Origin: Elusimicrobiota bacterium
GTDB lineage: Bacteria; Elusimicrobiota; Elusimicrobia; F11
Assembly: GCA_044221725.1 (NCBI GenBank)
Contig: JBGAON010000003.1
Span: forward strand, 160,001 to 224,000
DNA: 64,000 nt
Direction of reading: 5' to 3'
Below are positions 22,563 to 43,413 of the stretch, in pieces. A program made the translations under genes and the position numbers. Each line of letters starts with the position of its first letter. Position 1 is the stretch's first letter. A model generated the notes under the pieces. It had not been told where the DNA came from and did not search any database. It saw nothing but the letters and a program-made list of their open reading frames with translations.

Positions 22563-23501
22563 ATGAGAAAAACGAGTCTAATTTTGGCGGTGTTTATGGT
22601 TTTTCCGGCTATCAGCGAAACACACGCTTGGAGCTGGGATTCTCCCGAAAATGTGATGCCCACATTGCGAGACGATCTCGACCGAGAAATTGCGGCGTAC
22701 CGTCAGCAGGTTTTAAACGGAATGGCTGTGCACGACCGGATCATCGCGCTCGACCGGCTAATTGACAACTACAAACCAATGGGAATAAATGTCGCCGAGC
22801 TTGAAACCGAACGGTCCCGCCTTGTGCTTGAAGAAAAACAGCAACAGTTGCGCACCTCTCAAGCTCAGGATCAAGCGACCATTCTTTTTGAACGCGGTGT
22901 TTCCGAGTACAAAGAAGGTCAATACGAAACCGCGCGTCAAACATTCCTCGAAGCCGAACGTCTTCTCCCTCAAGATTCTGCGATTAAGGAAACGCGTCGA
23001 CGATTGTCGAATGTGACGCCAATTCTCGAAGTCGAAGTCGGAGCCGGAAAAGATTCCCAGCTCATCCGTCTCGCGGTGACTCGTTATCTTGAAAACGATC
23101 CAAAGAGAGCGCTGAACGCATTGATTTACGCAAACGATAAAAAAATAGCGCGACCTGAAATTCCACGTCTTCGTCGTCTCATTGAAACCGATCATCCCGA
23201 AATCGAACCGCCGGCACTTCCAGCCGGTTTGTCGCTCGTGGATCACAAGTTGCAACTCACGCTCGAGGCGATTTACGACGGACGCTACCTGTCGGCCATC
23301 ACCGAGTGCACCGATGTTCTCGATTTGGAACCGACCAACGTAATGGCGCTTACGCGACTGGGGTCCGCTTATTTTGCCATGAACGAGCGCGAGAAAGCCA
23401 AGCAGATTTGGACGAAAGCGCTGCAATATGATCCGAACAACGAAGTTCTGAGAAAATTCTTGTATGGCTCAAAAGGATCTTCCCGTGTTGAAACGCGTTA
23501 A
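22563..23501 (+). CDS. secreted TPR-repeat protein
   Basis: Signal-peptide-like N-terminus (MRKTSLILAVF..THA); TPR-like helices (FERGVSEYKEGQYETA, ALTRLGSAYFAM..KAKQIWTKALQYDP). Confidence 0.75.
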   Translation: MRKTSLILAVFMVFPAISETHAWSWDSPENVMPTLRDDLDREIAAYRQQVLNGMAVHDRIIALDRLIDNYKPMGINVAELETERSRLVLEEKQQQLRTSQAQDQATILFERGVSEYKEGQYETARQTFLEAERLLPQDSAIKETRRRLSNVTPILEVEVGAGKDSQLIRLAVTRYLENDPKRALNALIYANDKKIARPEIPRLRRLIETDHPEIEPPALPAGLSLVDHKLQLTLEAIYDGRYLSAITECTDVLDLEPTNVMALTRLGSAYFAMNEREKAKQIWTKALQYDPNNEVLRKFLYGSKGSSRVETR

Positions 23502-25194
23502 CCAATATCTTCTGTTCATCGTTTTTTCCGCTGTCGTTCTGCTTGGCGGTTTTGCGAACGCCGAACTTTCGCTCGATAGCGAACGCCTGGATCTTGAAAT
23601 GAGAATGCAAAAGCGCGTGGAAGAAGCGCTTGGAAAAATTTTGCCGGAGGGGCAGTTCGTTGTCGTTATTCGCGTGGAGCCACTCGCCATTAAAGAATCC
23701 ACAAGCAAGAACGAGAAAGACGACAACGGTTTTTATCTGCCCGGTGTGCCCGTGAAAAAAAGTTTCGACTCGACCGGTGAGCAAATGCAAAACCTCGTCG
23801 ACACGCTAAAACCTGAATCAAAAATTTTCCAGCGTTTCATCAAACGCATCCAAGTCACCCTCGTTCTCGATCAGGCGACGGCGGATGATGTTGTGTCGAA
23901 GGTGCGCGAGCTCACGCGTCAAATGCTCAGTCTTGATTCCGAACGGGGCGATACGCTTGATATTCAGAAAACTGCGTTTTCGAAACCCACCGAGGTTCAA
24001 CTTTCGCCAACCGGAATTCTTAAATTGCAGAAAGACTTAAAAAATTACTGGCTGCTCATTCTCCTTGTGCTTGTTATTTTCTGCATCATCGTTTTTTTCT
24101 TGTTCATGTTTGGGCCGCTTCGCGGTTTCTTGAACAACTTCGTGCAAATCTTACCGACGCTCAAATCACAGGAAGCGGCGCGCGTCCGCATGGAGATGCC
24201 ATTTATTCCACCGTACATGAATCCGTACGGTTTGCCGGGACCGAACGGTCCCACCGTGGCCGCAGGAAATGCGGCGTTCTCAGGTTCGTTGCAAGTTGAG
24301 AATCCCAACAAAACCATCCTGCCGTTCGGATTTATTCGGGAAGATCATCTCGGAAATTTGGCAATTTTGTTGGCGCGTGAAGTGCCCGAAAAAGCGGCTG
24401 TCGTGCTCGGCTATTTGCCCCCCGATTGGATCAGCCGTGTACTGGCGCGTTTGGATCAGACAATGCAGTCGGATATTGCTGCTCATCTCGCTACAACCCG
24501 GCAGCTTCTCCCGGAACAAGTGGAAGACATCGAGCAGGATTTAAAACGCCGGCTCGATTATCTCGTGGGCGGGCCGGACCGCATCTTCGCGATTTATGAA
24601 TCACTCGAGCCTGAGGGGCAGAAGCGAATGCTCGATAGTCTTAAGGAATCACGCCCCGAAATTGTCGAAGAGCTTCGGCAACGAACGCTTTTGTTTGAGG
24701 ATCTTGAGCGCTTGGATTCGCCCGCGCTCAAATCTGTTTTGCGTGAAGTGGATTTGCAAACGATTGTGACCAGCTTGAAAGGCGTTACGGAGTCCTTCAA
24801 GACCCGCATCTTGGAACACATGTCCGAGGGCAAGGCAGAGATCGTAAGGCAAGAGCTTGACCTGAGCGACGCCAACGCCGTCGGAAAAGCCACGATGGAA
24901 GCGCAGCGTAAAGTGGTGCTTTTGGCCAAACGCCTTGAGCGCGAGGGACACATCCATATCCCGCACGTGACCGAGGGCGCCCCGCCAACGCGGTTCGGCC
25001 CATCGTTGCGTTCGACGCTCAAGTTGCCACCGGGGCTCAAGATTGACGATACCCTTCCGGTCGAACCGATTTCTTCGGAAACTCCGGCTCCGAAGGACAA
25101 CATCCAAGACCGTATTCGCAAATTTATTAGCCGACGCAACGACGATCGGGCCGAAAGATACCCGACCGACAAGCCGCCAAAAGATAGGAGATAA
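23464..25194 (+). CDS. membrane protein fusing a FliF-like ring-building domain to FliG middle and C-terminal domains
   Basis: N-terminal hydrophobic segment; FliF-RBM3-like IKRIQVTLVLD..LSLDSERGDTLDI..F; TM at about 24046-24115; FliG-M-like EVPEKAAVVLGYL; GG linker; FliG-C-like LFEDLERLD..VLREVD..HMSE; start could be 23485/23488. Confidence 0.75.
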   Translation: MAQKDLPVLKRVNQYLLFIVFSAVVLLGGFANAELSLDSERLDLEMRMQKRVEEALGKILPEGQFVVVIRVEPLAIKESTSKNEKDDNGFYLPGVPVKKSFDSTGEQMQNLVDTLKPESKIFQRFIKRIQVTLVLDQATADDVVSKVRELTRQMLSLDSERGDTLDIQKTAFSKPTEVQLSPTGILKLQKDLKNYWLLILLVLVIFCIIVFFLFMFGPLRGFLNNFVQILPTLKSQEAARVRMEMPFIPPYMNPYGLPGPNGPTVAAGNAAFSGSLQVENPNKTILPFGFIREDHLGNLAILLAREVPEKAAVVLGYLPPDWISRVLARLDQTMQSDIAAHLATTRQLLPEQVEDIEQDLKRRLDYLVGGPDRIFAIYESLEPEGQKRMLDSLKESRPEIVEELRQRTLLFEDLERLDSPALKSVLREVDLQTIVTSLKGVTESFKTRILEHMSEGKAEIVRQELDLSDANAVGKATMEAQRKVVLLAKRLEREGHIHIPHVTEGAPPTRFGPSLRSTLKLPPGLKIDDTLPVEPISSETPAPKDNIQDRIRKFISRRNDDRAERYPTDKPPKDRR

Positions 25195-25196
25195 CC

Positions 25197-25982
25197 ATGG
25201 ATTTGATGACGCTTCTCGGATGGGTCGTGGGTCTTGGAGCCATTGGATGGGTCCTTCAAGAAGGTGGCACCATTCACTTTTTTGTGAACGTTCGTGCGAT
25301 TGTGTTGGTGTTCGGCGGAACTTTTGGCGCAACGCTGATCACCTATCCGTGGGGAATTTTGAAGCGCATGCCGTCGTCACTTCTTTATTTCATATTCCCT
25401 GGACGTCGCGAGTCGGCGGACAGTTTGATGTCGCGCTTGTTGGCGTTGTCGAATCGCGCGCGTCGGACCGGCATGGAGAGCCTTGATCTCGACATGCGCG
25501 GCACACGCGATCATTTTCTCGCGAATGGTTTAAAAATGATTGCCGACGGATTGCCGCCAAACGTGGTTCGTTCGAATCTCGAGAAGGAAATTTATTTCAT
25601 TCGCTTGCGGCACGCCGAAATTTCAAACGTCTTTAGAAATATGGCCACGTACGCGCCCATTTTTGGTTTGCTGGGAACCTTGGTGGGCGTGGTCGAAGTC
25701 ATGCTAAATCTAACGGATCCGCGCACGATGGGCATGCACATGGCTGTCGCGATGACCGCCACGTTCTACGGAATTTTCGGCGCAAACTTTTTGTTTCTGC
25801 CGGTCGCTGGGAAGCTGCAATCTTATTCGGAGCAAGAAATCTTTCTTAAAGAAGTAACGATCGAAGGAATCTTGTCCATTCAGCGCCAAGAAGTTCCGGC
25901 CATCTTAACCCGTCGCCTGGAGTCCTATCTGAATCGGCGCAGCCGTACACGTATCGCCGATGAACGGAGAGACGCCGCTTGA
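25197..25982 (+). CDS. MotA-family stator A subunit
   Basis: IVLVFGGTFGA, RARRTGMESLD, APIFGLLGTLVG, ATFYG..ANFLFLPVAGKL, EGILSIQ. Confidence 0.9.
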   Translation: MDLMTLLGWVVGLGAIGWVLQEGGTIHFFVNVRAIVLVFGGTFGATLITYPWGILKRMPSSLLYFIFPGRRESADSLMSRLLALSNRARRTGMESLDLDMRGTRDHFLANGLKMIADGLPPNVVRSNLEKEIYFIRLRHAEISNVFRNMATYAPIFGLLGTLVGVVEVMLNLTDPRTMGMHMAVAMTATFYGIFGANFLFLPVAGKLQSYSEQEIFLKEVTIEGILSIQRQEVPAILTRRLESYLNRRSRTRIADERRDAA

Positions 25983-26635
25983 TTCATCGATTGATTCGTT
26001 TCAAAAACGATTCCCGACTCGAAACTATTTGGCTTACGATTTACGCGGATCTCATCACGAACATGATGCTGGTTTTCCTTGCGTTGTACGGATTAACTGT
26101 AATGGGAGATGACGCGCTCACACGTGCGGTTCAGTCGATGAGCTTGAACGATATTTACTCAATGAAGGAAACCAATCTTGATTTTTCTGATATCGCGCCG
26201 GCCTTGCGGCAGAAATTCAAGCAGCAAGCCGATATAAAGATTACCGAGGAAGTGGGTGTGGTGCACATTGAATTTGGGGAACAAATTCTTTTTGATTCCG
26301 GTCGGGCTGTGCCAAAAGGAAGCGCGATCGAGCCGGTCAGAGTGGTTGCCGATCTGATTAAACCGTTGCCGCACACCATTGTCGTTGAAGGACACACGGA
26401 CTCCAGTCCGTTGCAGCACGGAAATGGTTATCGCGACAATTACGAGCTCTCATTGGCGCGCTCAATGTCCATCGTTAATCTCCTGATCGCCGACGGTATT
26501 CCCGCGGATCAAATTGCCGCGGCTGCGTATGGCGAATATCGTCCGCGGGCTTCCAATAGCACGGCGTTGGGGCGTGGCGTCAATCGTCGGGTGGAGATCG
26601 CACTCTTTAAGGATTTCGGTTATGTCCATCGATGA
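25979..26635 (+). CDS. MotB-family stator B subunit 1 (TM plus OmpA-like peptidoglycan-binding domain)
   Basis: WLTIYADL TM helix with conserved Asp; LFDSG, VEGHTD, NYELSLARS, NRRVEI. Confidence 0.88.
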   Translation: MIHRLIRFKNDSRLETIWLTIYADLITNMMLVFLALYGLTVMGDDALTRAVQSMSLNDIYSMKETNLDFSDIAPALRQKFKQQADIKITEEVGVVHIEFGEQILFDSGRAVPKGSAIEPVRVVADLIKPLPHTIVVEGHTDSSPLQHGNGYRDNYELSLARSMSIVNLLIADGIPADQIAAAAYGEYRPRASNSTALGRGVNRRVEIALFKDFGYVHR

Positions 26636-27338
26636 GAACGAAGAGGGATTAGGGGCGTCCGAGCCGCTTCCTCTGTTTGAGGAAGACGACGCAGACGCGC
26701 ATGCGTCCGAAGCCGGTGAGGACGTTGACTCAGAATACATTCTGCGACGGCAACAGCCCGAGCGTCGAGCTCCGCGCCAACTTTGGCTCATTTCCTATTC
26801 GGACTTTATGACAATCCTTATGATTTTCTTTCTCGCAATGTACGGTTATACGTATCTTGCCAAGGCCGCTCTGTTAAAGAATGAAAAGAAAATTTCGAAT
26901 TACTCGCAGTTCACGACGCAGATACAAGAATTGCAGAAATCGCTCGGCAGTCAGCTACGAGTTCAAAACGACGTGGACAAAATCGTGATACAGCTCAGCG
27001 ACAAAATTCTTTTTGCCAGCGGCAGCGCCTCCGTCGAACCGGCCGCCGGGCCCACACTTGAAGAATTGGCCAATTCAATTAAGCTGGTGGACGGTGACGT
27101 CATCGTTCAAGGCCACACCGACAATGTTCCGATTCGTGGCGGTCGTTACAGGTCGAATTGGGAATTGTCAACGGCCCGAGCGTTTTCAGTAATCAAAAGA
27201 TTAACCGAGGCGGGCGTGCCCGCGCAGCGTCTGGCCGCGTGGGGACTTGGAGAGAACAGGCCGATCACGGACAATTTAACGCCCGAGCATCGCGCCGAGA
27301 ACAGACGCATTGAAGTCGTGATTTTGAAGAAGAAGTAA
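26622..27338 (+). CDS. MotB-family stator B subunit 2
   Basis: WLISYSDFMT TM helix with conserved Asp; LFASG, QGHTD, NWELSTARA, NRRIEV; acidic N-terminal tail. Confidence 0.88.
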   Translation: MSIDENEEGLGASEPLPLFEEDDADAHASEAGEDVDSEYILRRQQPERRAPRQLWLISYSDFMTILMIFFLAMYGYTYLAKAALLKNEKKISNYSQFTTQIQELQKSLGSQLRVQNDVDKIVIQLSDKILFASGSASVEPAAGPTLEELANSIKLVDGDVIVQGHTDNVPIRGGRYRSNWELSTARAFSVIKRLTEAGVPAQRLAAWGLGENRPITDNLTPEHRAENRRIEVVILKKK

Positions 27339-27349
27339 AAAGGGGAATT

Positions 27350-28354
27350 ATGGCCGGTGAGCGCATCCTTATAATAGATGACGATGAGCAAGTCGCTTCC
27401 TATTGTCGTTTGGCGTTCACGCTGGCCGGATACCAGGTGGAGTGGATTAAAGACGGGCGCCAGGCGGTGCAGAAAGTGCGTGAAATGATTCCCGACGCCG
27501 TCATTCTCGATTTGAAGTTGCCCGGCATAAACGGTTTCCGAATTTGCGAACAACTTCGCTTGGAGCCTCAGACGCGCGCGATCCCTATTATCGTCGTGAG
27601 CGGCAGCTGGAAAGATTCGCAGGATCGCATTCGTTCGATCGAGGTCGGCGCCGATGATTTTCTCACAAAGCCGTTTGACGCCGAAGAACTGATTGCGCGG
27701 ATCAAACGCATGTTGCAGCGAAAGAAAGTTGATATGGGGCACAACCCGCTCACGGGTCTTCCCGGAAATCTTGCCATCGAAGAAGAGGCGCGGCGCCGGC
27801 TTGCACGGAAAGATCCGCTCGCGTTCGCGTATATCGACCTCGACAATTTCAAAGCCTACAACGATGTGTATGGCGTAAAACAAGGCGACAAAGTTATTCG
27901 ATTGCTAGCCGACTTGTTGGTCCAAGCCACGAAGCGGTGGGGAAATCAGGACGATTTCATTGGCCATGTTGGCGGAGACGATTTTATCGGAATGACAACG
28001 CCGGACAAAGCGCAAGCCGTGTTCGAATGGATTGCCAAGCGCTTCGACGAACGGATTGCCGCCTATTATTCGGAAGCCGATTTAAAAGCGGGTTGTATCA
28101 CGGCCAAAGACCGTCAAGGAAACGTGAAGAAATTCCGATTCGTTTCTGCTTCGATCGTTTATTTGACCGACAAAAACATTGAGACGAATCAATACCCGTT
28201 ATTGATTCAGGCGCTCACCGAAATGAAAGGATTTGTTAAACACACCATGGAACGCAAAGGCGGAAGCGTCGTGTTTCGGGATCGGCGTAGCACCGAAGAG
28301 CCGCCATCCAAAACGATTTCTGCCCCGATTCCAAAAACAAAACCCGCCGCTTAG
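27350..28354 (+). CDS. response regulator with GGDEF-like (GGDDF) output domain
   Basis: REC domain (DDD, ILDL, KPF) followed by NPLTGLPGN, DLDNFKAYND.YG, GHVGGDDF. Confidence 0.9.
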   Translation: MAGERILIIDDDEQVASYCRLAFTLAGYQVEWIKDGRQAVQKVREMIPDAVILDLKLPGINGFRICEQLRLEPQTRAIPIIVVSGSWKDSQDRIRSIEVGADDFLTKPFDAEELIARIKRMLQRKKVDMGHNPLTGLPGNLAIEEEARRRLARKDPLAFAYIDLDNFKAYNDVYGVKQGDKVIRLLADLLVQATKRWGNQDDFIGHVGGDDFIGMTTPDKAQAVFEWIAKRFDERIAAYYSEADLKAGCITAKDRQGNVKKFRFVSASIVYLTDKNIETNQYPLLIQALTEMKGFVKHTMERKGGSVVFRDRRSTEEPPSKTISAPIPKTKPAA

Positions 28355-32175: not shown

Positions 32176-32676
32176 ATGGCTGATACACAAGAACCAACGC
32201 TCCAACAGCCCGAACTTACCCGACGCTCCTTCCTTTTGTGGGGATGGGGCGCTTTTCTCGCATTCCTTGCTTCGTCGGCCGGATCTGTTCTCCGCTTTTT
32301 CTTGCCAAACGTTCTCTACGAACCATCCCAAAAATTCCGCGCCGGCAAGGTTGTGGATTATCCTCTTGGCGTAACGATCGACAAAGCGCACCGCGTCTGG
32401 ATTATTCGCAACGACCAAGGTTTGTACGCGATGTGGGCGCGTTGCACGCACCTTGGTTGCACACCGAACTGGTTTCCCGCTGAATCTCGCTTTCGTTGCC
32501 CGTGTCACGGCTCCAACTTTTCTGCCGCCGGAGATGTGATCGCCGGTCCGGCACCAAAACCTCTTTGGCGTGTGCAAGTCACACAAACCCCGCAGGGTGA
32601 ACTCGTCGTCGATAAAGCCATCATGGAGAATCGTCCGGGCGTGCGGGAAAAACCACCGTTCTTCATTAATGTATAG
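32176..32676 (+). CDS. Rieske 2Fe-2S subunit of a bc-type complex
   Basis: Tat motif TRRSFL plus TM helix; CTHLGC and CPCHGS boxes. Confidence 0.93.
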
Positions 32677-32687
32677 TACGTCCCTTC

Positions 32688-34328
32688 ATGTTCCAAAAAC
32701 TCGATCCTAAGAAGCTTTTCGAAGATTTAACAAACACACAGGTCTGGCGCTCCATGTTCCGCGGTGGAACATGGAAAGACACGTCGCGTGACCGCGCGCA
32801 ACACATTCTTGGCAATGTTTGGTTGCACTTGCATCCAGCCCGCATCCGCCGTCGCGGAGTAAAGTTTACCTACACCTGGGGTTTGGGCGGCCTTTCTTTC
32901 TTCCTGTTTCTTGTTCTCACCGTGACCGGCATTGTGCTTATGTTCTATTACCGTCCAACGCCGGACTTGGCCTACCGCGATATGAAAGATTTGGAATTTG
33001 TCGTTTCGATGGGAAAATTCATGCGCAACATGCACCGCTGGTCTGCGCACACGATGGTTCTGTTTGTGATCTTGCACATGGTTCGCGTGTTTCTCACGGG
33101 GGCGTACAAAACCCCGCGCGAATTCAACTGGGGTGTCGGCGTCGTTCTTCTCGTCATCACTCTTTTCCTGTCGTTTACCGGTTATCTACTCCCATGGGAT
33201 CAATTGGCCATTTGGGCCGTTACGGTTGGAACCAACATGGCGAGCGCCTCGCCGTTTCTTGGAGCGGAAGGCCCGTTTTCAGCGTTATTGGGCGTCGGTC
33301 TTAAGAACGACGCGCGTTTCGGCCTTCTCGGTGGAACGGCGGTCGGATCCGCGACACTGGTTCGGTTTTACGTTTTGCATTGCATCGCGGTCCCGGTCAT
33401 TGCTGGTATTTTTATGATTGTGCATTTCTGGCGTATTCGCAAAGATGGATTTTCCGCAGCCCCAATCGACAACGAACCACCAACGCAAAAGATTGAAGTG
33501 TGGCCAAACCTCGTAGTTCGCGAATATCTCGGTGCAATTCTCATGTTGATCTTCTTGGTTGGTTGGTCGTTTCTTCAGAACGCACCCCTCGAAGGCATCG
33601 CGGATCCGAACGTGACACCGAATCCTTCCAAGGCGCCGTGGTATTTCTTGGGTCTTCAAGAGTTGCTCGTCTATTTTGATCCGTGGATTGCCGGCGTGGT
33701 TTTGCCGACGATCATTATGATTGGCCTTATGGCAATTCCCTATTTGGATCCGGATCCAAACCGTGGTGTCGGTTTTTATTCGTTCAAAGAACGCCCGTTT
33801 GCAAACATTATTTTCTTGGCTGGCATTTTCGCGTGGTTCGCGTTGATTGTCATCGGCACGTTCATGCGAGGACCGAACTGGCAGTGGTACTGGCCTTGGG
33901 AAAGTTGGCTTATTCACAAGGCGCCACCGCCGCCAACATCCATTATGCCGCTGGCTCTTGGCGCGCCGCTTATTGCAATTTATTTTGCGGTGGGAATGGT
34001 GCTACCGTTATTAATTAAGTGCGAAATTAACGTGAAGTCCTCTGTGAAAAAGATTTTTGGCGGTGCTTTTCTGTTGGCGCTCATTGTTGGGGTGTTACCG
34101 AGCTTTACGTTCGTGCAGGGCGCATGGGTTGGGTTTGGTGTAGGTCTTTATTTAATCATGGGCGTCATTTTGCCGACGCACTATTTGAAGGGCATCAGCA
34201 AGATCCGTTACACCGTGTGCATGGCGTTGTTGTTGATGATGATCGGCGTTTTCTTGAAGGTGACGCTGCGCCTTGGATTTAACATCAAATATATTGTTTC
34301 CATCCCACAAGTTAGCTTGAACGTCTAA
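32688..34328 (+). CDS. cytochrome b (b6-like N-terminal part fused to subunit IV-like part, extra C-terminal TMs)
   Basis: Four heme His (MHRW..ILH; LHC..IVH), [15 protein letters not shown]. Confidence 0.92.
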
Positions 34329-34329
34329 C

Positions 34330-35640
34330 GTGAAAATAGAAAATAAATTTCTCCAAAAATTGTTCATGCTGCGCTACTTATTTTTGTGGGGCAACGTTAT
34401 TCTCTTGTTGCTTTTTGTGGCCGTGCTCGTTCGAGACAATTGCCGCGGTTGGAAAGACTATCAAGTCGAATTCAAAAAGCGTGAAGTAGCGAAAGCGCAA
34501 GAAAAAGTTAATAACGCGCCGACCTCCGAGGCGAAAGAAGTGGCCCTCCAAGAACTGAAACAAGCAAAAAAGATGCCGATTGAGGTGCGCCAGATTTGGA
34601 CTCAGGAGATGAACGCCGTTGACCGTTGCATAACCTGTCACTTGGGCTACGATCCACTTCAAAACAGTTCTCTCACCACCGAGTACAAAGAGCATCCTTA
34701 CAGTGCCACCGGTGCTTCACCGGGTTTTGATATTCATAAAGCACACAATCTCGAAAAATTTGGTTGCGTTGTTTGCCACGGCGGACAAGGTCTGGCGACC
34801 GAAGTGAAAGCCGCGCACGGCGAAGTCGAACATTGGGAAAAGCCGCTCTTGAAAGGGGTTTTGCTCGAAGCGTCGTGCGTCAAATGCCACGATAACCATG
34901 CTGATTTGAAGATCAATGGAGAGATTTATACCGCCGACATCGTTCGCGCAAAAAAATTGTTCCGCGATAACGGTTGTATCGGTTGCCATCAAGTGGGTGG
35001 TGAAGGTGGTGTGATTTCCGTCGATTTGAAAGAAGAAACGTCGAACAAGCCGCTCAGTCGAATCGATTTTTCCCACACCGGATTGGATAAAGAACAGCGG
35101 ACGCTCGCGAATTGGATTAAGGTGCACCTCGTGAAAGATCCCGTGGATGTGACGCCGGGCGATCCAACAGCATCGTTCAACACCGAACCGATTGCGCCAT
35201 CCGGCATGCCGCCCTATTTGATGTCTGAAAAAGACGCCGATGCGCTGACCGCATGGGTGTTGAGCTTGAACCGACAAGGTATTCCGCCTCAATTCTTGAC
35301 GTTGCGGCCGCCGGAAGCGGAGCCCAATATTAGTGGTGCCGTGGCGAAGGGTCGCTACGTGTATGACAAGTTTGGTTGCGCCGCATGCCACGGTGCCGAC
35401 GCGCGCGGTGGAATTCGGGATTACAATGCGCAGTACGACGTTACACCGAATCTCCGTCGTGTGGTGGGGACTTACACACGCGAAGAGATCAAATCGAAAA
35501 TTTCGGAAGGTGTTCCGTTTATCGCGAAACACGATCCCAACGGGCCGACCCCGCCGTTTTACATGCCGGCGTGGAAGTCCAAGATCAAGGGCGACGACTT
35601 AGAGAACCTCGTCACTTACTTGCAGAGCATAAAAGAATAA
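34330..35640 (+). CDS. membrane-anchored pentaheme cytochrome c
   Basis: N-terminal TM; CITCH, CVVCH, CVKCH, CIGCH, CAACH. Confidence 0.92.
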   Translation: MKIENKFLQKLFMLRYLFLWGNVILLLLFVAVLVRDNCRGWKDYQVEFKKREVAKAQEKVNNAPTSEAKEVALQELKQAKKMPIEVRQIWTQEMNAVDRCITCHLGYDPLQNSSLTTEYKEHPYSATGASPGFDIHKAHNLEKFGCVVCHGGQGLATEVKAAHGEVEHWEKPLLKGVLLEASCVKCHDNHADLKINGEIYTADIVRAKKLFRDNGCIGCHQVGGEGGVISVDLKEETSNKPLSRIDFSHTGLDKEQRTLANWIKVHLVKDPVDVTPGDPTASFNTEPIAPSGMPPYLMSEKDADALTAWVLSLNRQGIPPQFLTLRPPEAEPNISGAVAKGRYVYDKFGCAACHGADARGGIRDYNAQYDVTPNLRRVVGTYTREEIKSKISEGVPFIAKHDPNGPTPPFYMPAWKSKIKGDDLENLVTYLQSIKE

Positions 35641-35682
35641 TTAGCCCTAGCTTTGCGTGGAATTTTCGATCAAGATGTAACT

Positions 35683-35760
35683 GGCTATCAGTTATCAGCT
35701 ATCGGCTGTCAGCCAGAAAGAATTTGAATATTGATAGCTGAAAGCTGAGAGCTGACAGCC
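35683..35760. repeat. inverted array of heptamer repeats (4x GCTATCA-like, spacer, 4x TGANAGC)
   Basis: GCTATCA GTTATCA GCTATCG GCTGTCA at 35684-35711; TGATAGC TGAAAGC TGAGAGC TGACAGC at 35732-35759. Confidence 0.85.
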
Positions 35761-35762
35761 AA

Positions 35763-37133
35763 ATGGCCGACGACAAATTTGACGTAATTGTAGTAGGAGC
35801 CGGACCCGCGGGAACATCCGCGGCGATTACCGCTGCAAAACTGGGATTGAACGTGGTGTTGCTTGAGCGCGGCGAATATCCTGGTTCGAAAAACGTGCAA
35901 GGCGCTGTGCTTTACACGAAAAATCTCGCCGACATCCTTCCTGAATTCTGGAAAGACCCGACCGCACCGCTGGAACGTTACATCACGACCCAAAACGTGA
36001 TGATCGCTTCTGATGATTCCGCAATCCAAGTTGGTTTTCGTTCGGATAAATGGGTTCAAGAGCCGCACAACTGCTACACGATTATTCGTGTGAATTTCGA
36101 CAAGTGGTACGCGAAAAAAGCGGAAGAGGCGGGCGTGCAACTTTTTACGGGTGTCAGAGTTTCGAAAGTCCTTCAAAAAGACAAAAAAGTCATTGGCATT
36201 GAAACGAGCGAAGGAGATCAGCTCTTCGCCGATGTCGTAATCGCCTGCGATGGCGTGAATTCGATGATTGCGCAATCGATCGGGCTGATCGATGAACTGC
36301 GTTCCGATGAAGTGGCGCTCGGCGTGAAAGAAGTGCTCGCGCTTCCAGAGGGCCGAATTCAAGATCGTTTCGCTCTTGAGAAGGGGGAGGGAGCGACGTT
36401 TGAAATTTTTGGTGGCGTGACGCGTGGAATGCTTGGTTACGCATTTCTTTATACAAATAAAGAGTCCATTTCTTTTGGTGTCGGTTGCAAGTTGTCGCAT
36501 TTCCAGCGAACGAACGCGCGCCCTTATGAATTGCTTGAAGCGGCCAAGAAACATCCCATCATCCGCCGATATCTTGCCGACGCCAAGCCGATCGAATATT
36601 CTGCGCACTTGATTCCGGAAGGAGGCTATTATTCTTTGCCGCCGCTTTACACCGACGGCTTTATGATTGCCGGCGATGCTGCGCAAATGATCAATCCATC
36701 GCACCGTGAAGGTTCAAATCTCGCAATGACGGCTGGCATGCTGGCCGCCCAAACGGCCGCCGAAGCAAAAAAGAAAGGGGATTTTTCGAAAGCGACGCTG
36801 GTTGAATATCAAAGGAAGCTCGAAGCATCTTTTGTGATTCCCGATATGGAAGACCATAAAGATTTGGAACACAAAATTGAGCGCAACATGGATTTGATCA
36901 CCGTTTATCCGGAGCTGGCCGCTCGTGCGCTGTACGAATACTTTACCGTTGACGGGCGTACCAAGAAGGATGTTCAAAAAAGTATTTTCCGCCGCATCCT
37001 CAAGACGCGATCCGTGAAAAATATTGTTCGTGACGTTTGGGGAATGGTGCACGCCGATGAGAAGAAGCCAACCGTGTGGGGTCTCATCAAAGAACTTTGG
37101 AAAATGAAAAGTGCATTTAAGAGGTTTGGATAA
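35763..37133 (+). CDS. fixC: FixC-family FAD-dependent ETF:quinone oxidoreductase
   Basis: GAGPAG, LERGEYPGSKN, FLYTNKES, EYSAHLIPEGG, GDAA; coupled to fixX. Confidence 0.88.
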   Translation: MADDKFDVIVVGAGPAGTSAAITAAKLGLNVVLLERGEYPGSKNVQGAVLYTKNLADILPEFWKDPTAPLERYITTQNVMIASDDSAIQVGFRSDKWVQEPHNCYTIIRVNFDKWYAKKAEEAGVQLFTGVRVSKVLQKDKKVIGIETSEGDQLFADVVIACDGVNSMIAQSIGLIDELRSDEVALGVKEVLALPEGRIQDRFALEKGEGATFEIFGGVTRGMLGYAFLYTNKESISFGVGCKLSHFQRTNARPYELLEAAKKHPIIRRYLADAKPIEYSAHLIPEGGYYSLPPLYTDGFMIAGDAAQMINPSHREGSNLAMTAGMLAAQTAAEAKKKGDFSKATLVEYQRKLEASFVIPDMEDHKDLEHKIERNMDLITVYPELAARALYEYFTVDGRTKKDVQKSIFRRILKTRSVKNIVRDVWGMVHADEKKPTVWGLIKELWKMKSAFKRFG

Positions 37134-37521: not shown

Positions 37522-40500
37522 ATGGAAACGCCCCGTTTCGTTCGCGTAGTTGCTGGTTCGCTTTCGATTGTTTATCTCGCCACGAATTGCTTGTTCGCCG
37601 GTCGCGTGGAAGGGAACATCTGGCAGGAAAGGCGACCGTCGTCGGCCCCGAATGTTTTCATCCAGCGTCCCCGTATTCCTGCGGTACACACGGATCTTGG
37701 CTTGCGACGTGCGAGCATGATGGCATTGGCCCGCTTCGGCACCATTCGCAACGTTCAAAAATCCACTCATCCTTCTCCAAAAAATCCCGTGGTGCTCCAT
37801 GTTCAAGACGTTCACATGAACAGCGAAGCACAAAGAAATATTTCCGGAGCTCTTCAACAGCTGATTGACAATGAAAAGGTACGGCTGCTGGCATTGGAAG
37901 GGGCTTTTCATTCAATCGATTTAACGCCGTTTCGTAAATTTCCCGATCGAACGAGTGTTTTCAACGTTGCGGATTACATGTTGCAAGAAGGAAAAATTTC
38001 CGGTGCCATTCATGCCGCGGTCTTCGCTGAAAAAACAGTCTCGACGATTGGTATCGACGATTTTGGCCATTACAATGCAAATGTGGAAGCCGTACAAAAA
38101 TCGTTCGCGGCATCGAAAGAATTAAAACCGGAGATCCTGCGCTACGTGAACGATCTCGAAAAGAAAAAACAACAGACATTTGATTCTTCGCTGCTTCGGT
38201 TCGATAACACCGTGCAACAATATCGTAACCAGTCGCTTTCGTTGGGAGATTACGCTTCGGCGCTTTCTCGGATCGTGGATGCATCGTCGAGCGTGAAAAC
38301 ATTTCTCAAAGCACGTCGTCTCGAGTCAATCATTGATTTCTCTGCGGTCGCGCGCGCGCGTGCCGAGGCGCGTGAGAAAAATATTTCCCCGATCCATTTC
38401 CCATCGTTGATGCTTTACGATGATTACTTGCGAGCGGCAAAGTCAATTGATTCGGATGCGTTGGCGAACGAGTTGGAACACATGGAAAGCGCGGCGTTTA
38501 AAAAGCTTTCGCGAACACCGGCGGAGAGAGAGTTGATTGCGCAATCGCGCCGACTTTATCTGCTTGAGAAGCTTGTGAATTTTTCTCTGACCAAAAATGA
38601 GTGGGACGAATACGAGAACGAGCATCGTTCCGCGTGCGCTATACCTCACGAAAGGATTCAGCCGTTTGAGGCGTTTTATATGGAAGCGGAATATCGTGAC
38701 GCCGCGATGGCGATGAACTTTTTAAATCAAATCAATGAGATAAATGATGCAGACCAAAGCACCTTTGTGTTGGTCACCGGCGGCTTCCATTCTTCCGGCA
38801 TCGACAAACGCCTCGGCGACGCAGGCTGTACCGTGGTGACATTTATTCCAAAGATCACGAAGATCGACACCGTAAACGGTTCCGCGTATCTCAGTGTGTT
38901 TGCGCAAGAAAAATTTTCGCTCGATAAGCTGTTCGAAGGAGAAAAAATTTTCCTTTCGCCTTCGCCGATGTCGAAAAGCGCATTCGGATTGTTCGCCGTG
39001 CTTGTGGCGAGCGTTGCGCTGCTCACCAACGCAGTCTCCAGCGGGATTGCCGCTTCGTGGCTTCAATCAACACTGGCAATGAACGATCTTTCAATTGCAA
39101 AAGCAGGGGCGAACGCGGTGAACATTGTCTTTGGACTTTATGGCGCGCACCTTGGCATCACGTTCTTGAGCGGAGCCGCAGGGGCGATTCGGCCAGAGCT
39201 TTCTATTGCCCGCCAGAAACCGGATTTCGGTCGCTGGTTCCCTTCTTCAATTCGGGAATCACTCGAGCACTTCATGCCGTGGTTCGTGCCGCAGCACATT
39301 GCGATTCGGCGGTGGCCGCTGTGGATTGGTTACGCAATGATTGTCACGTGTGGCGTTGCGTTTCCGGTTCTTTTTTCTGAGTTTGTCTCTGTCGTTCCCT
39401 CCGAAGTGTGGATGTGGACGGGCGGTGTTGTTGCGCACGAATTTTATAACCGGCTGGCAAAAGTTATGGGTTGGCCCATGTTGACCCGTGTGGTTCTTGC
39501 CCAAGATTTTTTAACGGCCGAACAGGAACAGAGCTTGGCTCGCGAAATGGATTCAATATTCGATTCGATGTTGCCGGTGCTGCTGGATAATGAAAAAGCC
39601 CAAGATTTGTTGCTTCGTCTTCTCAAGTCCGATTTGCACAGAAGAATAAATCTGAATCTTGTCATCCAGGCGGATGTGCAGGCGCACAAAAAGGGAAAAT
39701 TTTGGATTCGGCCTGGTTTGACTGCCAAAAACAACGTTCGAATTGCAGACCTCATTCAAGTCCTAACTCGCACTCCCAGTTCCGAGCTTTATGCGCAGAT
39801 CAAAGATTGGCATGAAAAAAACAACGATCTTTCTTTGAATTTGAGGAATTTGACGTTGAGATTTTTGCACGGATTTCGAGAGCTTTCTTATTCTGAGAAA
39901 CAACAACGACAGATTTCGAATTGGATAAGAACCTATGAAGATACAAGGAACATGCTGGTACGACCTTATGTGGGCATCGTCACCGGTCTTGCAAAAAAAT
40001 TTACAAGACAAGGACTGTCAATCGATGAATTGGAATCTGAGGGCTACAGTGGATTGCTTGCGGCGGCCGAACATTATCGCGTTGGGTTTGGACGTTTCAG
40101 CACTTTTGCGACTCCATCAGTGAGAAGAAGCATGCGCGTCGCTGTGTTGCGGAAGGCAAAAGAGAACGCGCCCGAGCGCACGCTGACGGAGTCGATCGCT
40201 GGCGAAGAAATTGATTACGATTCATCGAAATACGAGGAATTATTGAAGCAGGTGTATCAATTGCCGCGGCGAGATCAATTTGTGTTGTCTCAATATTACG
40301 GATTGAATGGCCTGGACCCGGAAAAGCTTGAACAAGTGGGGCGTCGCCTGGGTTTGTCGGTGGAACGAATTCGCCAAATAAGAAACCGCGCGCTGGATAG
40401 GCTTCGAGAGCGCCTGACGTCGCCGACAGGCGAACTTCGGGAGGAAGAAGAGGGTGCGCCTATCTCGAAAAAGCTGAACAGACAGAACGTTATTGATATG

Positions 40501-43413
40501 TTGACCAACGTTTCTCCATCCGTGTTAATGTCTCATGAGGCCGATGTTTTAAGAATGATTTTCGGTATCAATGGTCGTGTGCCGCTTACAATTCAAGAAA
40601 TCTCGGAAGCCACAAAATGGTCCGAATGGCAAATTGAAAGAATCCGCGATGCGGCGCTCGATAAATTGATGAAGGCCCGTGTTCATGAGCACGCATTCGG
40701 AAGGGGGATTCTTCCTTTTCTCGCGCGTGAGTCAAGATTTCTGCGCTTGAAGGGGCATACGCGTTCCGCCTCTTTAATAGAAAACGTTGTTTTTCCTTCC
40801 CTTGAAGAGCTTGTCTTTAGTTTTGGAGCGGTTTACGTGTTCGGCGCGTACGGACTCATTATCGCACGCGTGATTCATGTGGCGTTGCATTTGCTAGGGC
40901 CGCCATTATCGGATCGTGGCGCTCAAAATGTTTTTCGAAAGCTTTTTATTCCTGTTCTTATTTCTGTTGCGCCGTTTTCCTTCCTTGGTGTTCCGAGTCT
41001 TTCTTCTTCGGTGTTTTCGGTAAGTGCGGCTTTTGATGTTGCTGCGCAGTTTTTCGAATGGCACGTTGTCTTTAATTCGCTCGTCGATTTGACGGGCGCG
41101 ACCGTCGCCAAAGCCAATTTGCCAACGAACGACGACATCGTGGGGCCGTATCGCATCCTTCGCGAAATCCGGCCGCAAAGCGCCCGAGCCGTGGCGGTGT
41201 ACGAAGCCGTCCACGTTGAGACAAACGCCAAAGTCATTCTTAAAACGTATCTTGATTTTCCAACGAATTCTCAGGAGTTTTTAAATGCGCATTCCCGTGA
41301 GGTTCGCAACCTCTGGCTGCTCACGCAAAAAGGGATCAATTTCGTTCCCAAATTAATTGATCAAGGCGTCGATTATCACGGCGCGGTTCCGCGATATTGG
41401 TTTGCGATGGAATTGGTCGAAGGGAAAACGCTCGACAAATGGCTCGCCGCCAATGCGAGCTACCACGATCGCTTGCAGGTGTTTCGAAACTTGTTGGTGG
41501 TCGTTGACCGTTTTCACCGAGAGGGATATGTTCACCTGGATCTTACGGCCACCAACATCATGGTGCTGCCAGACAATCAAGTGATGCTTATCGACGTCGA
41601 ATTGATGCAGTCGCTTGAGGTATCCCTTCAACAATTTGTGCTCGGTGCGCCCGCTTATGCATCGCCGGAAACACGGGCGGGTTTTCGGGGAGTTTATACG
41701 CGATCGGCGGATGTTTTTTCTCTCGGTGTAATACTGTTTTTAATGAGCACGGGCATGTCAAAATTGGAACGCCATCCTGCGAACGACGGGGTTTTCTCTT
41801 CGTTGGTAACTCGATATCCAGATGCGGATATATATGAATGGGTTCGCGCCGAGATCGCCAAGCAATCCCCTTGGGCAGTGTACGGCGATGTGATCTCAAA
41901 GGCACTCCGAGCCAACCCGCATTCGCGGTTCACATCCGCTCGGAATTTTCTGAAGGCCATGGACGACGCAGCGGTGCACCACGCTTTGGATGTTTCGAAA
42001 GCGATGCAAGCCATTGACCGCGCTTTTTACCTTGAAGACACAAAAGTTGTCGACGTCACAACCGCTCCTAATGATCTGATGATTTACACCGTTGAGCCGG
42101 AATGGAAAACGGGTCTTGCTTTGTTAACCCAGGAACTATCGTCGCCGCATCCTCGATTCCAACTGGTCATGCGGAATTCGAGATTAATAGGAATTGTTCC
42201 CACCGAAACGCGGCGGGATTCGAGTTTTCGGTATTTGTCTTTGGCCGATTATCAGTACGATCCTCCGGATTATTCCATTGGGCTTTCGAATAAGTGGAAA
42301 GAAATTTTGAAACAAAGCAGCGAGGACGAAGCACGCCTCGAGGAATATTTGCGATCACGCGGGCGTACCGATCGCGAGATCCAAGGCGGTCGTCTCAATG
42401 GATTCGGTGATCATTGTGTTGAACCTGCCGTGCTTGTTGATCTGGGCACGTCGATCACGCTCACATCCATTCGGTCACCTCTCGAACACCCACAGCCGCT
42501 GTTGGCGAGTCGTCGACAAGCCGAAAACTTTGTGATTCAGGTTTTGCCCACCGTCTCTTCTCCGATCGGCAAACAGAATGGCGGATACGAAAAAGCGGCT
42601 GAGGATCGGAAATACTATTTCAATGTTACGAATGTCGCGGAGACATACGATAAGAAAAACGGGCCTGGTTCGTGGAAGGGAAAGAAAAGAATTCGAGTCG
42701 TTGGCTGCGGAACCGGCTGTGACGCGGTCGCCGTGTTGGTGGGTGCAATAAATTATCACGGACATTCGATTGCTGACTTAAGGGACTATATTCGTATCAA
42801 CGAAAGAGTGCCCGAATGGGCACCGATTATCGATGCCAGTGACATAAACCCGGTGGCGGTTGAAAACACGAAGCTCACATTTGACCAACTTGGGATTTCA
42901 GCGGTCGTCTACGCGCATGTGACGGACAACTTGCTGTCTTCGATTCCAACCACGGAGCTCGCCGACGTAATAATTTGGAACATGCCATCTTATCCAGCCG
43001 ATAAATTAGCGGATCAATTGGCCGATTATGCTGATGGCGGCGCCAACGGCAAGATTGCGCTCGACATTTTAACGGAAAGGCTATCGGCGAACTTGGCCGA
43101 TGGCGGCGTGGGAATTTTTGGGAACTACCAAACGCCGGTTATTTTAGACGGAACGCAACGCGATCTTGTTCGATACAAGTTGGTTAACAGCGCAGGGGCT
43201 CGTGAGCGAGGCATGACCGTTCAAGGGGGAGGATTGTATGGCAGCCGCGAGGTCTACGTAACGCATGTGCCGTTGACCCAATCACCGGTGACGCGAATGG
43301 ATGTTGGTCTCAAGTTTCGTTTGGAACATAATCAACAAAACAATGAGCTGCCGAAAATCCCGGTCCGTCACGAGGACTGGATCGAGCGTCGCGCCATTTT
43401 GGGCGGTGCTTAG
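37522..43413 (+). CDS. 1963-aa multidomain membrane protein: N-terminal alpha/beta domain, TM block, sigma70-like r1.2/r2/r4/r4, TM block, Ser/Thr kinase-like domain, class I SAM methyltransferase
   Basis: HVQDVH..EAQ.NI / LEGA / TGGFH; EGYSGLLAA..RFSTFA; LSVERIRQIR.RAL; VILK, HLDLTATN, YASPE, DVFSLG; VGCGTG, DINPVAV, WNMP. Confidence 0.85.
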   Translation: METPRFVRVVAGSLSIVYLATNCLFAGRVEGNIWQERRPSSAPNVFIQRPRIPAVHTDLGLRRASMMALARFGTIRNVQKSTHPSPKNPVVLHVQDVHMNSEAQRNISGALQQLIDNEKVRLLALEGAFHSIDLTPFRKFPDRTSVFNVADYMLQEGKISGAIHAAVFAEKTVSTIGIDDFGHYNANVEAVQKSFAASKELKPEILRYVNDLEKKKQQTFDSSLLRFDNTVQQYRNQSLSLGDYASALSRIVDASSSVKTFLKARRLESIIDFSAVARARAEAREKNISPIHFPSLMLYDDYLRAAKSIDSDALANELEHMESAAFKKLSRTPAERELIAQSRRLYLLEKLVNFSLTKNEWDEYENEHRSACAIPHERIQPFEAFYMEAEYRDAAMAMNFLNQINEINDADQSTFVLVTGGFHSSGIDKRLGDAGCTVVTFIPKITKIDTVNGSAYLSVFAQEKFSLDKLFEGEKIFLSPSPMSKSAFGLFAVLVASVALLTNAVSSGIAASWLQSTLAMNDLSIAKAGANAVNIVFGLYGAHLGITFLSGAAGAIRPELSIARQKPDFGRWFPSSIRESLEHFMPWFVPQHIAIRRWPLWIGYAMIVTCGVAFPVLFSEFVSVVPSEVWMWTGGVVAHEFYNRLAKVMGWPMLTRVVLAQDFLTAEQEQSLAREMDSIFDSMLPVLLDNEKAQDLLLRLLKSDLHRRINLNLVIQADVQAHKKGKFWIRPGLTAKNNVRIADLIQVLTRTPSSELYAQIKDWHEKNNDLSLNLRNLTLRFLHGFRELSYSEKQQRQISNWIRTYEDTRNMLVRPYVGIVTGLAKKFTRQGLSIDELESEGYSGLLAAAEHYRVGFGRFSTFATPSVRRSMRVAVLRKAKENAPERTLTESIAGEEIDYDSSKYEELLKQVYQLPRRDQFVLSQYYGLNGLDPEKLEQVGRRLGLSVERIRQIRNRALDRLRERLTSPTGELREEEEGAPISKKLNRQNVIDMLTNVSPSVLMSHEADVLRMIFGINGRVPLTIQEISEATKWSEWQIERIRDAALDKLMKARVHEHAFGRGILPFLARESRFLRLKGHTRSASLIENVVFPSLEELVFSFGAVYVFGAYGLIIARVIHVALHLLGPPLSDRGAQNVFRKLFIPVLISVAPFSFLGVPSLSSSVFSVSAAFDVAAQFFEWHVVFNSLVDLTGATVAKANLPTNDDIVGPYRILREIRPQSARAVAVYEAVHVETNAKVILKTYLDFPTNSQEFLNAHSREVRNLWLLTQKGINFVPKLIDQGVDYHGAVPRYWFAMELVEGKTLDKWLAANASYHDRLQVFRNLLVVVDRFHREGYVHLDLTATNIMVLPDNQVMLIDVELMQSLEVSLQQFVLGAPAYASPETRAGFRGVYTRSADVFSLGVILFLMSTGMSKLERHPANDGVFSSLVTRYPDADIYEWVRAEIAKQSPWAVYGDVISKALRANPHSRFTSARNFLKAMDDAAVHHALDVSKAMQAIDRAFYLEDTKVVDVTTAPNDLMIYTVEPEWKTGLALLTQELSSPHPRFQLVMRNSRLIGIVPTETRRDSSFRYLSLADYQYDPPDYSIGLSNKWKEILKQSSEDEARLEEYLRSRGRTDREIQGGRLNGFGDHCVEPAVLVDLGTSITLTSIRSPLEHPQPLLASRRQAENFVIQVLPTVSSPIGKQNGGYEKAAEDRKYYFNVTNVAETYDKKNGPGSWKGKKRIRVVGCGTGCDAVAVLVGAINYHGHSIADLRDYIRINERVPEWAPIIDASDINPVAVENTKLTFDQLGISAVVYAHVTDNLLSSIPTTELADVIIWNMPSYPADKLADQLADYADGGANGKIALDILTERLSANLADGGVGIFGNYQTPVILDGTQRDLVRYKLVNSAGARERGMTVQGGGLYGSREVYVTHVPLTQSPVTRMDVGLKFRLEHNQQNNELPKIPVRHEDWIERRAILGGA

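Follow-up and report, generated by a model that had tools for sequence, protein, structure and literature searches.

The window analysed here, the whole 64,000-nucleotide stretch from the genome of a free-living Elusimicrobiota bacterium, carries a compact six-gene operon that is a real, conserved and non-flagellar module built from the core of the flagellar motor. The operon encodes, in this order, a TPR protein, a fusion of the FliF RBM3 domain to FliG, MotA, two MotBs and a REC-GGDEF protein. Each part belongs to a known family, and the novelty lies in the system. The sequencing runs containing the window DNA were derived from bioreactor, wastewater and sludge metagenomes. The six open reading frames (ORFs) span 22563..28354 and all lie on the + strand (TM, transmembrane):

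22563..23501, + strand: TPR protein of 312 aa, predicted to be periplasmic, with an N-terminal signal-like segment (Pfam TPR)
23464..25194, + strand: FliF-RBM3/FliG fusion (Pfam FliG_C, FliG_M and a weak YscJ_FliF_C)
25197..25982, + strand: MotA, a full-length flagellar-type stator A subunit (Pfam MotA_ExbB)
25979..26635, + strand: MotB-1, with TM Asp24 and an OmpA-type peptidoglycan-binding domain (Pfam MotB_plug and OmpA)
26622..27338, + strand: MotB-2, with the TM Asp present (Pfam MotB_plug and OmpA)
27350..28354, + strand: REC-GGDEF protein, with the motif GGDDF at aa 208 (Pfam Response_reg and GGDEF)

The successive gene junctions are -38 nt (or -17 nt with a GTG start at 23485), +2, -4, -14 and +11 nt. 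The GTG at 23485 is probably the start of the fusion gene; it is accompanied by a ribosome-binding-like purine run and agrees with a 569-aa database entry. The operon is flanked by a divergent Zn-dehydrogenase gene on one side, and by the genes for tRNA-Gly, tRNA-Thr and tuf on the other. An earlier interpretation made from the letters of the window alone (the sequence-only reading) had described six co-oriented, compact genes with these flanks, and all ORFs and junctions agree with that description. In the fusion, a signal-like segment is followed by a periplasmic RBM3 whose collar insert is shortened, a single TM helix (aa 197-215), a Pro/Gly-rich linker, and the middle and C-terminal domains of FliG, the FliG N domain being absent. 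The Pfam matches were strong for FliG_C (E = 2.7e-21) and FliG_M (8.5e-13), and weak for YscJ_FliF_C (0.0044). The earlier label of a FliF/FliG fusion thus holds for the FliG middle and C-terminal domains and for RBM3, but the FliF share is limited to RBM3 and a single TM helix. The best matches of MotA were models and structures of flagellar MotA, MotC, MotP and PomA (E about 1e-46 to 1e-55), and the two MotBs are 34% identical to each other.

The genome assembly (G000) totals 2.82 Mb, spread over 5 contigs, with a completeness of 93.9%. Profile searches of this whole assembly, with positive controls, found no FlhA, FliP, flagellin, FliM/N, rod or hook proteins, canonical FliF or CheW, so that the absence of flagellar genes first noticed within 64 kb extends to the entire assembly. 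The N-terminal half of FliF (YscJ_FliF, RBM1/2) also had no match in the assembly, whereas it was present in all four flagellated relatives. Exactly two FliG_C matches occur in the genome, one in the window fusion and the other in a paralog at C3:259739-261631. The four flagellated relatives have their own separate fliF, fliG and motAB within flagellar clusters; fusion operons occur besides these flagellar genes in three of the four (G242, G064 and G121). The operon is not a displaced flagellar part, because flagellated relatives keep these genes separately; the earlier proposal of a non-flagellar unit, which a complete flagellar set elsewhere in the genome without a fliF, fliG and motAB of its own would have contradicted, is thereby upheld. 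One might still suppose a displaced part or decaying relic of a flagellum, given that the closest solved homologs of all motor parts are flagellar proteins and that the assembly falls short of completeness. Nevertheless, the reading frames are intact, genomes carry a single copy of the module or several, which fall into old clades, and FlhA is missing from most genomes with the fusion (see below), and we regard this explanation as barely tenable. As a separate observation, the flagellar cluster of G121 (L150:17790-20000 and L154) contains a MotA gene followed by two MotB-like genes, the second of which lacks the TM Asp.

Among 301 Elusimicrobiota genomes, we found a match to the fusion in 110, to MotA (E<=1e-25) in 112, and to FlhA in 6. 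Comparison of the lists indicated that 107 genomes matched both the fusion and MotA, and that FlhA was absent from 104 of the 110 fusion-positive genomes. A fusion match alone is not proof of a fusion; the RBM domain was confirmed in 78 of 79 loci, which were hand-picked from high-scoring rows and include kin that are not independent of one another. The fusion was nearly missing from two families (1/88 and 1/89 genomes), which we take to be host-associated ones. All named relatives are Elusimicrobiota. The cluster proved to be conserved, as its gene order recurs across the family of the window organism and its core recurs across the phylum, and this recurrence indicates that the arrangement is more than chance.

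Two types of operon can be distinguished. Type A, represented by the window and 34 other loci, consists of TPR or PorV-TPR, fusion, MotA, MotB and MotB genes. Type B, represented by a paralogous operon in the same genome, comprises genes for a giant tail-bearing protein, a PorV-TPR protein, a fusion with a TPR tail, coiled-coil proteins, MotA and one MotB:

C3:257835-268548 (L032): second motor operon, type B; PorV-TPR, FliF/FliG-TPR fusion, coiled-coil proteins of 583 and 900 aa, MotA, MotB and a DsbA-like protein

In a FastTree phylogeny of the FliG part, types A and B formed separate phylum-wide clades (supports 0.92 and 0.99), the exceptions being a single type A outlier and some additional types. 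The two are, as the tree portrays them, old paralogous clades spanning the phylum. The type B clade also harbours a 346-aa protein of FliG middle and C-terminal domains plus TPR, without RBM3 or TM helix, whose gene (L084:8836-9876, genome G065) adjoins a parA-like gene.

The TPR protein connects the two types. Its sequence is 29% identical over 233 aa to the tail of the PorV-TPR protein on C3 (E 7e-32), and a whole-genome search with a hidden Markov model of the TPR family gave only these two proteins above 240 bits, the next scoring 79 bits. The window TPR protein is, as judged from these matches, a barrel-less homolog of the PorV-TPR tail in the paralogous operon. The TPR family is a dedicated one, whose members usually are fused to a PorV-family barrel or lie next to one, and the C3 barrel itself, at 114.6 bits, exceeded the cut-off of 90 bits for the PorV family. 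Of the 79 loci, 51 (12/34 type A and 39/45 others) had a co-oriented PorV-like gene at most two genes away from the fusion, as compared with 3.5% of the 2242 genes in the window genome. Likewise, a gene with a type IX secretion system (T9SS) tail was found within six genes of the fusion in 39 of the 79 loci, vs 8.5% of genes in that genome, which has ~27 PorV-like and ~24 tail-bearing genes in total. In one protein the C-terminal sorting domain exceeded the cut-off (TIGR04183, 32.3 vs 23 bits), and the others gave weaker FlgD_ig, CHU_C or PorU-tail matches. Many of the PorV-like genes in the window genome directly adjoin a gene for a T9SS-type tail, as pairs of cargo and barrel. Giant proteins with such tails are encoded next to many of the motor operons.

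The sequence-only reading had suggested that the motor might serve giant surface proteins such as the one encoded from 55703. The gene in question runs from window position 55703 through the window end at 64000 to C5:242003, and encodes a secreted protein of 8766 aa that contains FG-GAP and fn3 repeats and carries a T9SS-type tail at its C-terminus; genes for a small protein consisting only of a tail and for a PorV-TPR protein lie 3' of it. The suggested link finds support in the paralogous operon and in relatives but not in synteny, as this gene is 27 kb away from the motor operon. Two tandem ORFs of ~8000 aa precede the type B operon (C3:209236-257815), the second of which has a T9SS-type tail at its end. 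Frame breaks near C3:233,150-233,850 suggest a single gene of ~16,000 codons, perhaps interrupted by assembly errors.

These associations raise the question of whether the unit stands in for PorL/PorM in energising a T9SS-like translocon, be it for every cargo or for the giant ones alone. The genome does contain SprA-like, PorV-like and tail-bearing genes, the SprA-like protein having 1799 aa (TIGR04189, E 1.6e-31; 108.5 bits, under the cut-off of 200) and no sequence match in PDB. GldM and GldN, furthermore, were undetected in all 5 genomes searched, but no control genome gave a match either; one sub-cut-off Pfam match fell on an OmpA-type lipoprotein. On the other hand, SprA-like genes occur in 259 of the 301 genomes, including 86/88 and 51/89 of the two families nearly without the fusion, and PorV-like genes persist in 88/88 and 65/89 genomes of the same families, in which MotA is almost missing as well. 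A general requirement of the unit for secretion is therefore unlikely. As both SprA- and PorV-like genes persist in lineages without the motor, the unit is probably not the general secretion motor. The argument does not reach a role confined to giant cargo, but we consider the replacement of PorL/PorM improbable overall. The gene for the divergent SprA-like outer-membrane protein (C4:344418-349817; L132:8419-13815) adjoins LptF/G-like genes; in families that have its homologs but not the motor, GldM and GldN were likewise undetected, under the same limit of the controls.

In the flagellar motor, the stator contacts FliG through the pairs MotA R90-FliG D288/D289 and MotA E98-FliG R281 (PMC12505986, PMC4030992). 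The Arg90-Asp289 pair mainly positions the stator, and the Glu98-Arg281 pair mainly serves torque (PMC4030992). E. coli numbering was transferred to our proteins through an alignment with T. maritima. The sequence-only reading had held that the MotA Arg, an acidic residue equivalent to Glu98, both Pro and the TM Asp of MotB were kept, which is correct for the window: its MotA has R89, D97, P154 and P202 along with T161 and T189, and an Asp was found in the TM helix of both MotBs. The claim does not carry over to the operon type in one respect, as the E98 position is acidic in only 8 of 35 type A MotAs. This change is not diagnostic, because Gln occupies the same position in the flagellar MotAs from G242 and G170. 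A basic residue stands at the R90 position in 34 of 35 type A MotAs; the two prolines and the threonine of TM3 do not vary. On the side of the fusion, Glu occupies the D289 position in 27 of 35, and 33 of 35 have a basic residue at the K264 position. The TM Asp was present in the first-position MotB of all 34 loci, whereas the second-position MotB had Asp in 23 and Asn in 11. This pattern fits a MotB-1/MotB-2 heterodimer that would have one obligatory ion-binding site.

We tentatively favour, at somewhat less than an even chance, the reading that the operon encodes an ion-driven force generator in the envelope, which may move or reposition adhesins held by PorV-type outer-membrane barrels. The fusion would oligomerise via RBM3 into a ring with its FliG domains in the cytoplasm, and a MotA5 stator with a MotB-1/MotB-2 pair would be held on peptidoglycan, with ions passing via the invariant Asp of MotB-1. 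MotA would contact FliG through the kept Arg90/acidic pair, with no FliM/N switch involved. The periplasmic TPR protein might then transmit force to the barrel and adhesin, resulting in gliding-like movement, retraction or release. There is a precedent in Flavobacterium, in which a T9SS adhesin is moved by an ion-driven motor (PMC8986121), and we count it in favour of this reading. On the same side we place the identity of the RBM3 and FliG domains, the joint occurrence of fusion and MotA, the separate copies in flagellated relatives, the two old clades, the PorV-like and tail-bearing genes near the fusion and elsewhere in the genome, the SprA-like gene, and the near absence of the system from two families. 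A more specific version posits a stand-alone FliG rotor, in which a single-protein FliF-FliG ring and a stator with heterodimeric MotB drive PorV-anchored giant adhesins, so constituting a new surface motility across the phylum; we regard this as possible, if somewhat unlikely.

Several observations weigh against a force generator for adhesins. The position of FliG Arg281 is Gly in the window fusion and Gly or Ala in 35/35 type A fusions, and it is Arg in only 1 of 47 other family proteins, as opposed to 3/3 flagellar FliGs of the same phylum; an intact torque interface is accordingly not supported. No equivalent of a rod or shaft was identified. PorV lies within six genes in only 14 of the 34 type A loci, and the window operon itself has neither a barrel nor a cargo gene. 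Finally, the PilT family has six matches above the cut-off in the genome, and with several such ATPases surface motility may not need the motor unit.

The last point leads to the idea that the unit assists type IV pilus twitching or envelope remodelling and has nothing to do with adhesins on barrels. PilT was present in 12/12 genomes of the family, a link to twitching was raised in a preprint (Uzun et al., bioRxiv 10.1101/2022.07.08.499144), and LysM on the TPR partners of some relatives, as well as the peptidoglycan-binding domains of both MotBs, could suit a role in the envelope. Nevertheless, no pilus genes were recognised beside the operon among the scanned neighbours, the enriched neighbours are PorV and tail-bearing genes, and we find such an accessory role quite improbable.

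The loss of Arg281, together with the positioning pair being largely kept, would also be expected of a surface- or mechanosensing device, in which the stator docks on a FliG scaffold and a kinase or cyclase (here the REC-GGDDF protein) is informed of load or engagement, useful rotation being slight or absent. At least 13 of the 34 type A loci had genes for a kinase, receiver or cyclase in or beside them (a count with no null, 27 of 65 flanking ORFs having been scanned in one domain scan), and a histidine kinase was fused N-terminally to the RBM3 family domain in 4 of 8 scanned proteins (P0239, P0248, P0253 and P0261). These flanking genes and kinase-RBM3 fusions keep a sensing role alive. One histidine kinase-RBM3 protein was annotated as kinase/FliG by its source. 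No single signalling partner is conserved, however, and type B operons are tied to a barrel, coiled coils and giant cargo, not to signalling genes. The invariant Thr and Pro channel residues of MotA and the Asp of MotB-1, moreover, fit an ion-conducting motor. On balance, we judge a sensing device unlikely, although it is the main rival of the favoured reading.

The control of the motor by cyclic di-GMP, earlier proposed as part of the core, was not supported. The REC-GGDEF gene follows the operon in 3 of the 34 type A loci, all from the family of the window organism, and in 6 of 10 loci of that family, which may partly overlap genomes among the 34; the remaining four sequences end earlier. 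The gene is a family-specific addition to the operon. The label REC-GGDEF is right as to the Response_reg and GGDEF domains but not as to the motif itself, GGDDF, which departs from the canonical GG(D/E)EF. Of GGDDF enzymes, one is active and another is inactive (PMC8835794), which we count among the points for sensing. Under our favoured reading of a force generator, REC-GGDDF may tune the motor in the family of the window organism.

Elsewhere in the window, ORF reading placed genes for Rieske, cytochrome b and cytochrome c-like proteins (32176-37133) right after rplA in a tuf-nusG-rplK-rplA cluster. Positions 37522-43413 encode a protein of 1963 aa in which sigma-70 regions 2 and 4 occur along with a protein kinase domain. 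This protein is encoded by one of many giant ORFs in the genome with a similar N-terminal segment, which often terminate in Ser-Ala, Gln-Ala or Gly-Ala.

To our knowledge, no non-flagellar system pairs a MotAB stator with a FliG partner, and none was found described in our literature searches. Nor did those searches, with subscription journals outside their coverage, turn up any account of the operon, the fusion or the link to PorV. The presence of motAB, flbD and fliG in most free-living non-flagellated Elusimicrobiota has been reported and their role called "enigmatic" (Uzun et al., bioRxiv 10.1101/2022.07.08.499144). These are the same genes in the same phylum, and a locus (L060) of the organism named in that preprint has the order fusion-MotA-MotB-MotB-REC-GGDEF; the accessible portion of the preprint deals with gene presence only, without mention of an operon, an RBM3 fusion, a link to PorV or an analysis of residues. 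A force generator of the kind proposed here could explain the movement of non-flagellated magnetotactic Elusimicrobiota, a question left by the same preprint. It could also account for the power source of T9SS-like surface proteins in Elusimicrobiota, in which neither GldM nor GldN was detected, albeit with the limits of that search given above. A natural four-protein core of rotor and stator would offer a test of the minimum needs of a flagellar motor and of the contribution of the Arg281 pair. Such a core would show whether a stator and FliG work without an export gate and axial parts, which bears on the origin of the flagellar motor. If the stand-alone rotor is genuine, free-living Elusimicrobiota possess a natural minimal rotary motor.

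Among known systems, SpoIIIAG has no FliG or stator and acts in sporulation. The 5:2 motors ExbBD, TolQR, AglRQS and ZorAB share with the operon an ion-driven membrane motor used outside the flagellum, and AglQ/AglS provide a precedent for two different B subunits. They differ in that the stator described here has a plug and an OmpA-type domain, has FliG as its partner, and comes with no TonB/TolA-type transducer. The plug and the OmpA-type domain are traits of flagellar-clade stators (PMC12505986). The T9SS/gliding machinery of Bacteroidota (SprA, PorV, GldLM, GldKN and SprB) has counterparts in the genome in PorV-family barrels and T9SS-tailed proteins, which the motor operons often lie beside, and a SprA-like gene of sub-cut-off score is present as well. 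The operon is nevertheless not a canonical T9SS motor, as it consists of MotAB and FliG in place of GldLM, and the SprA-like protein is a divergent one by its score. With the core of the flagellar motor, the operon shares a full-length flagellar-type MotA, MotB with the TM Asp and OmpA domain, the FliG middle and C-terminal domains, and FliF RBM3. It departs from that core in the natural fusion, which lacks TM1, RBM1 and RBM2 of FliF as well as FliG-N, in the loss of Arg281, and in having two different MotBs; a TPR/PorV partner takes the place of FliM/N, export gate, rod, hook, filament and CheW, none of which was found in the assembly. An engineered counterpart exists in Salmonella, in which a FliF-FliG deletion fusion without much of FliG-N still assembles C rings (PMC7355467).

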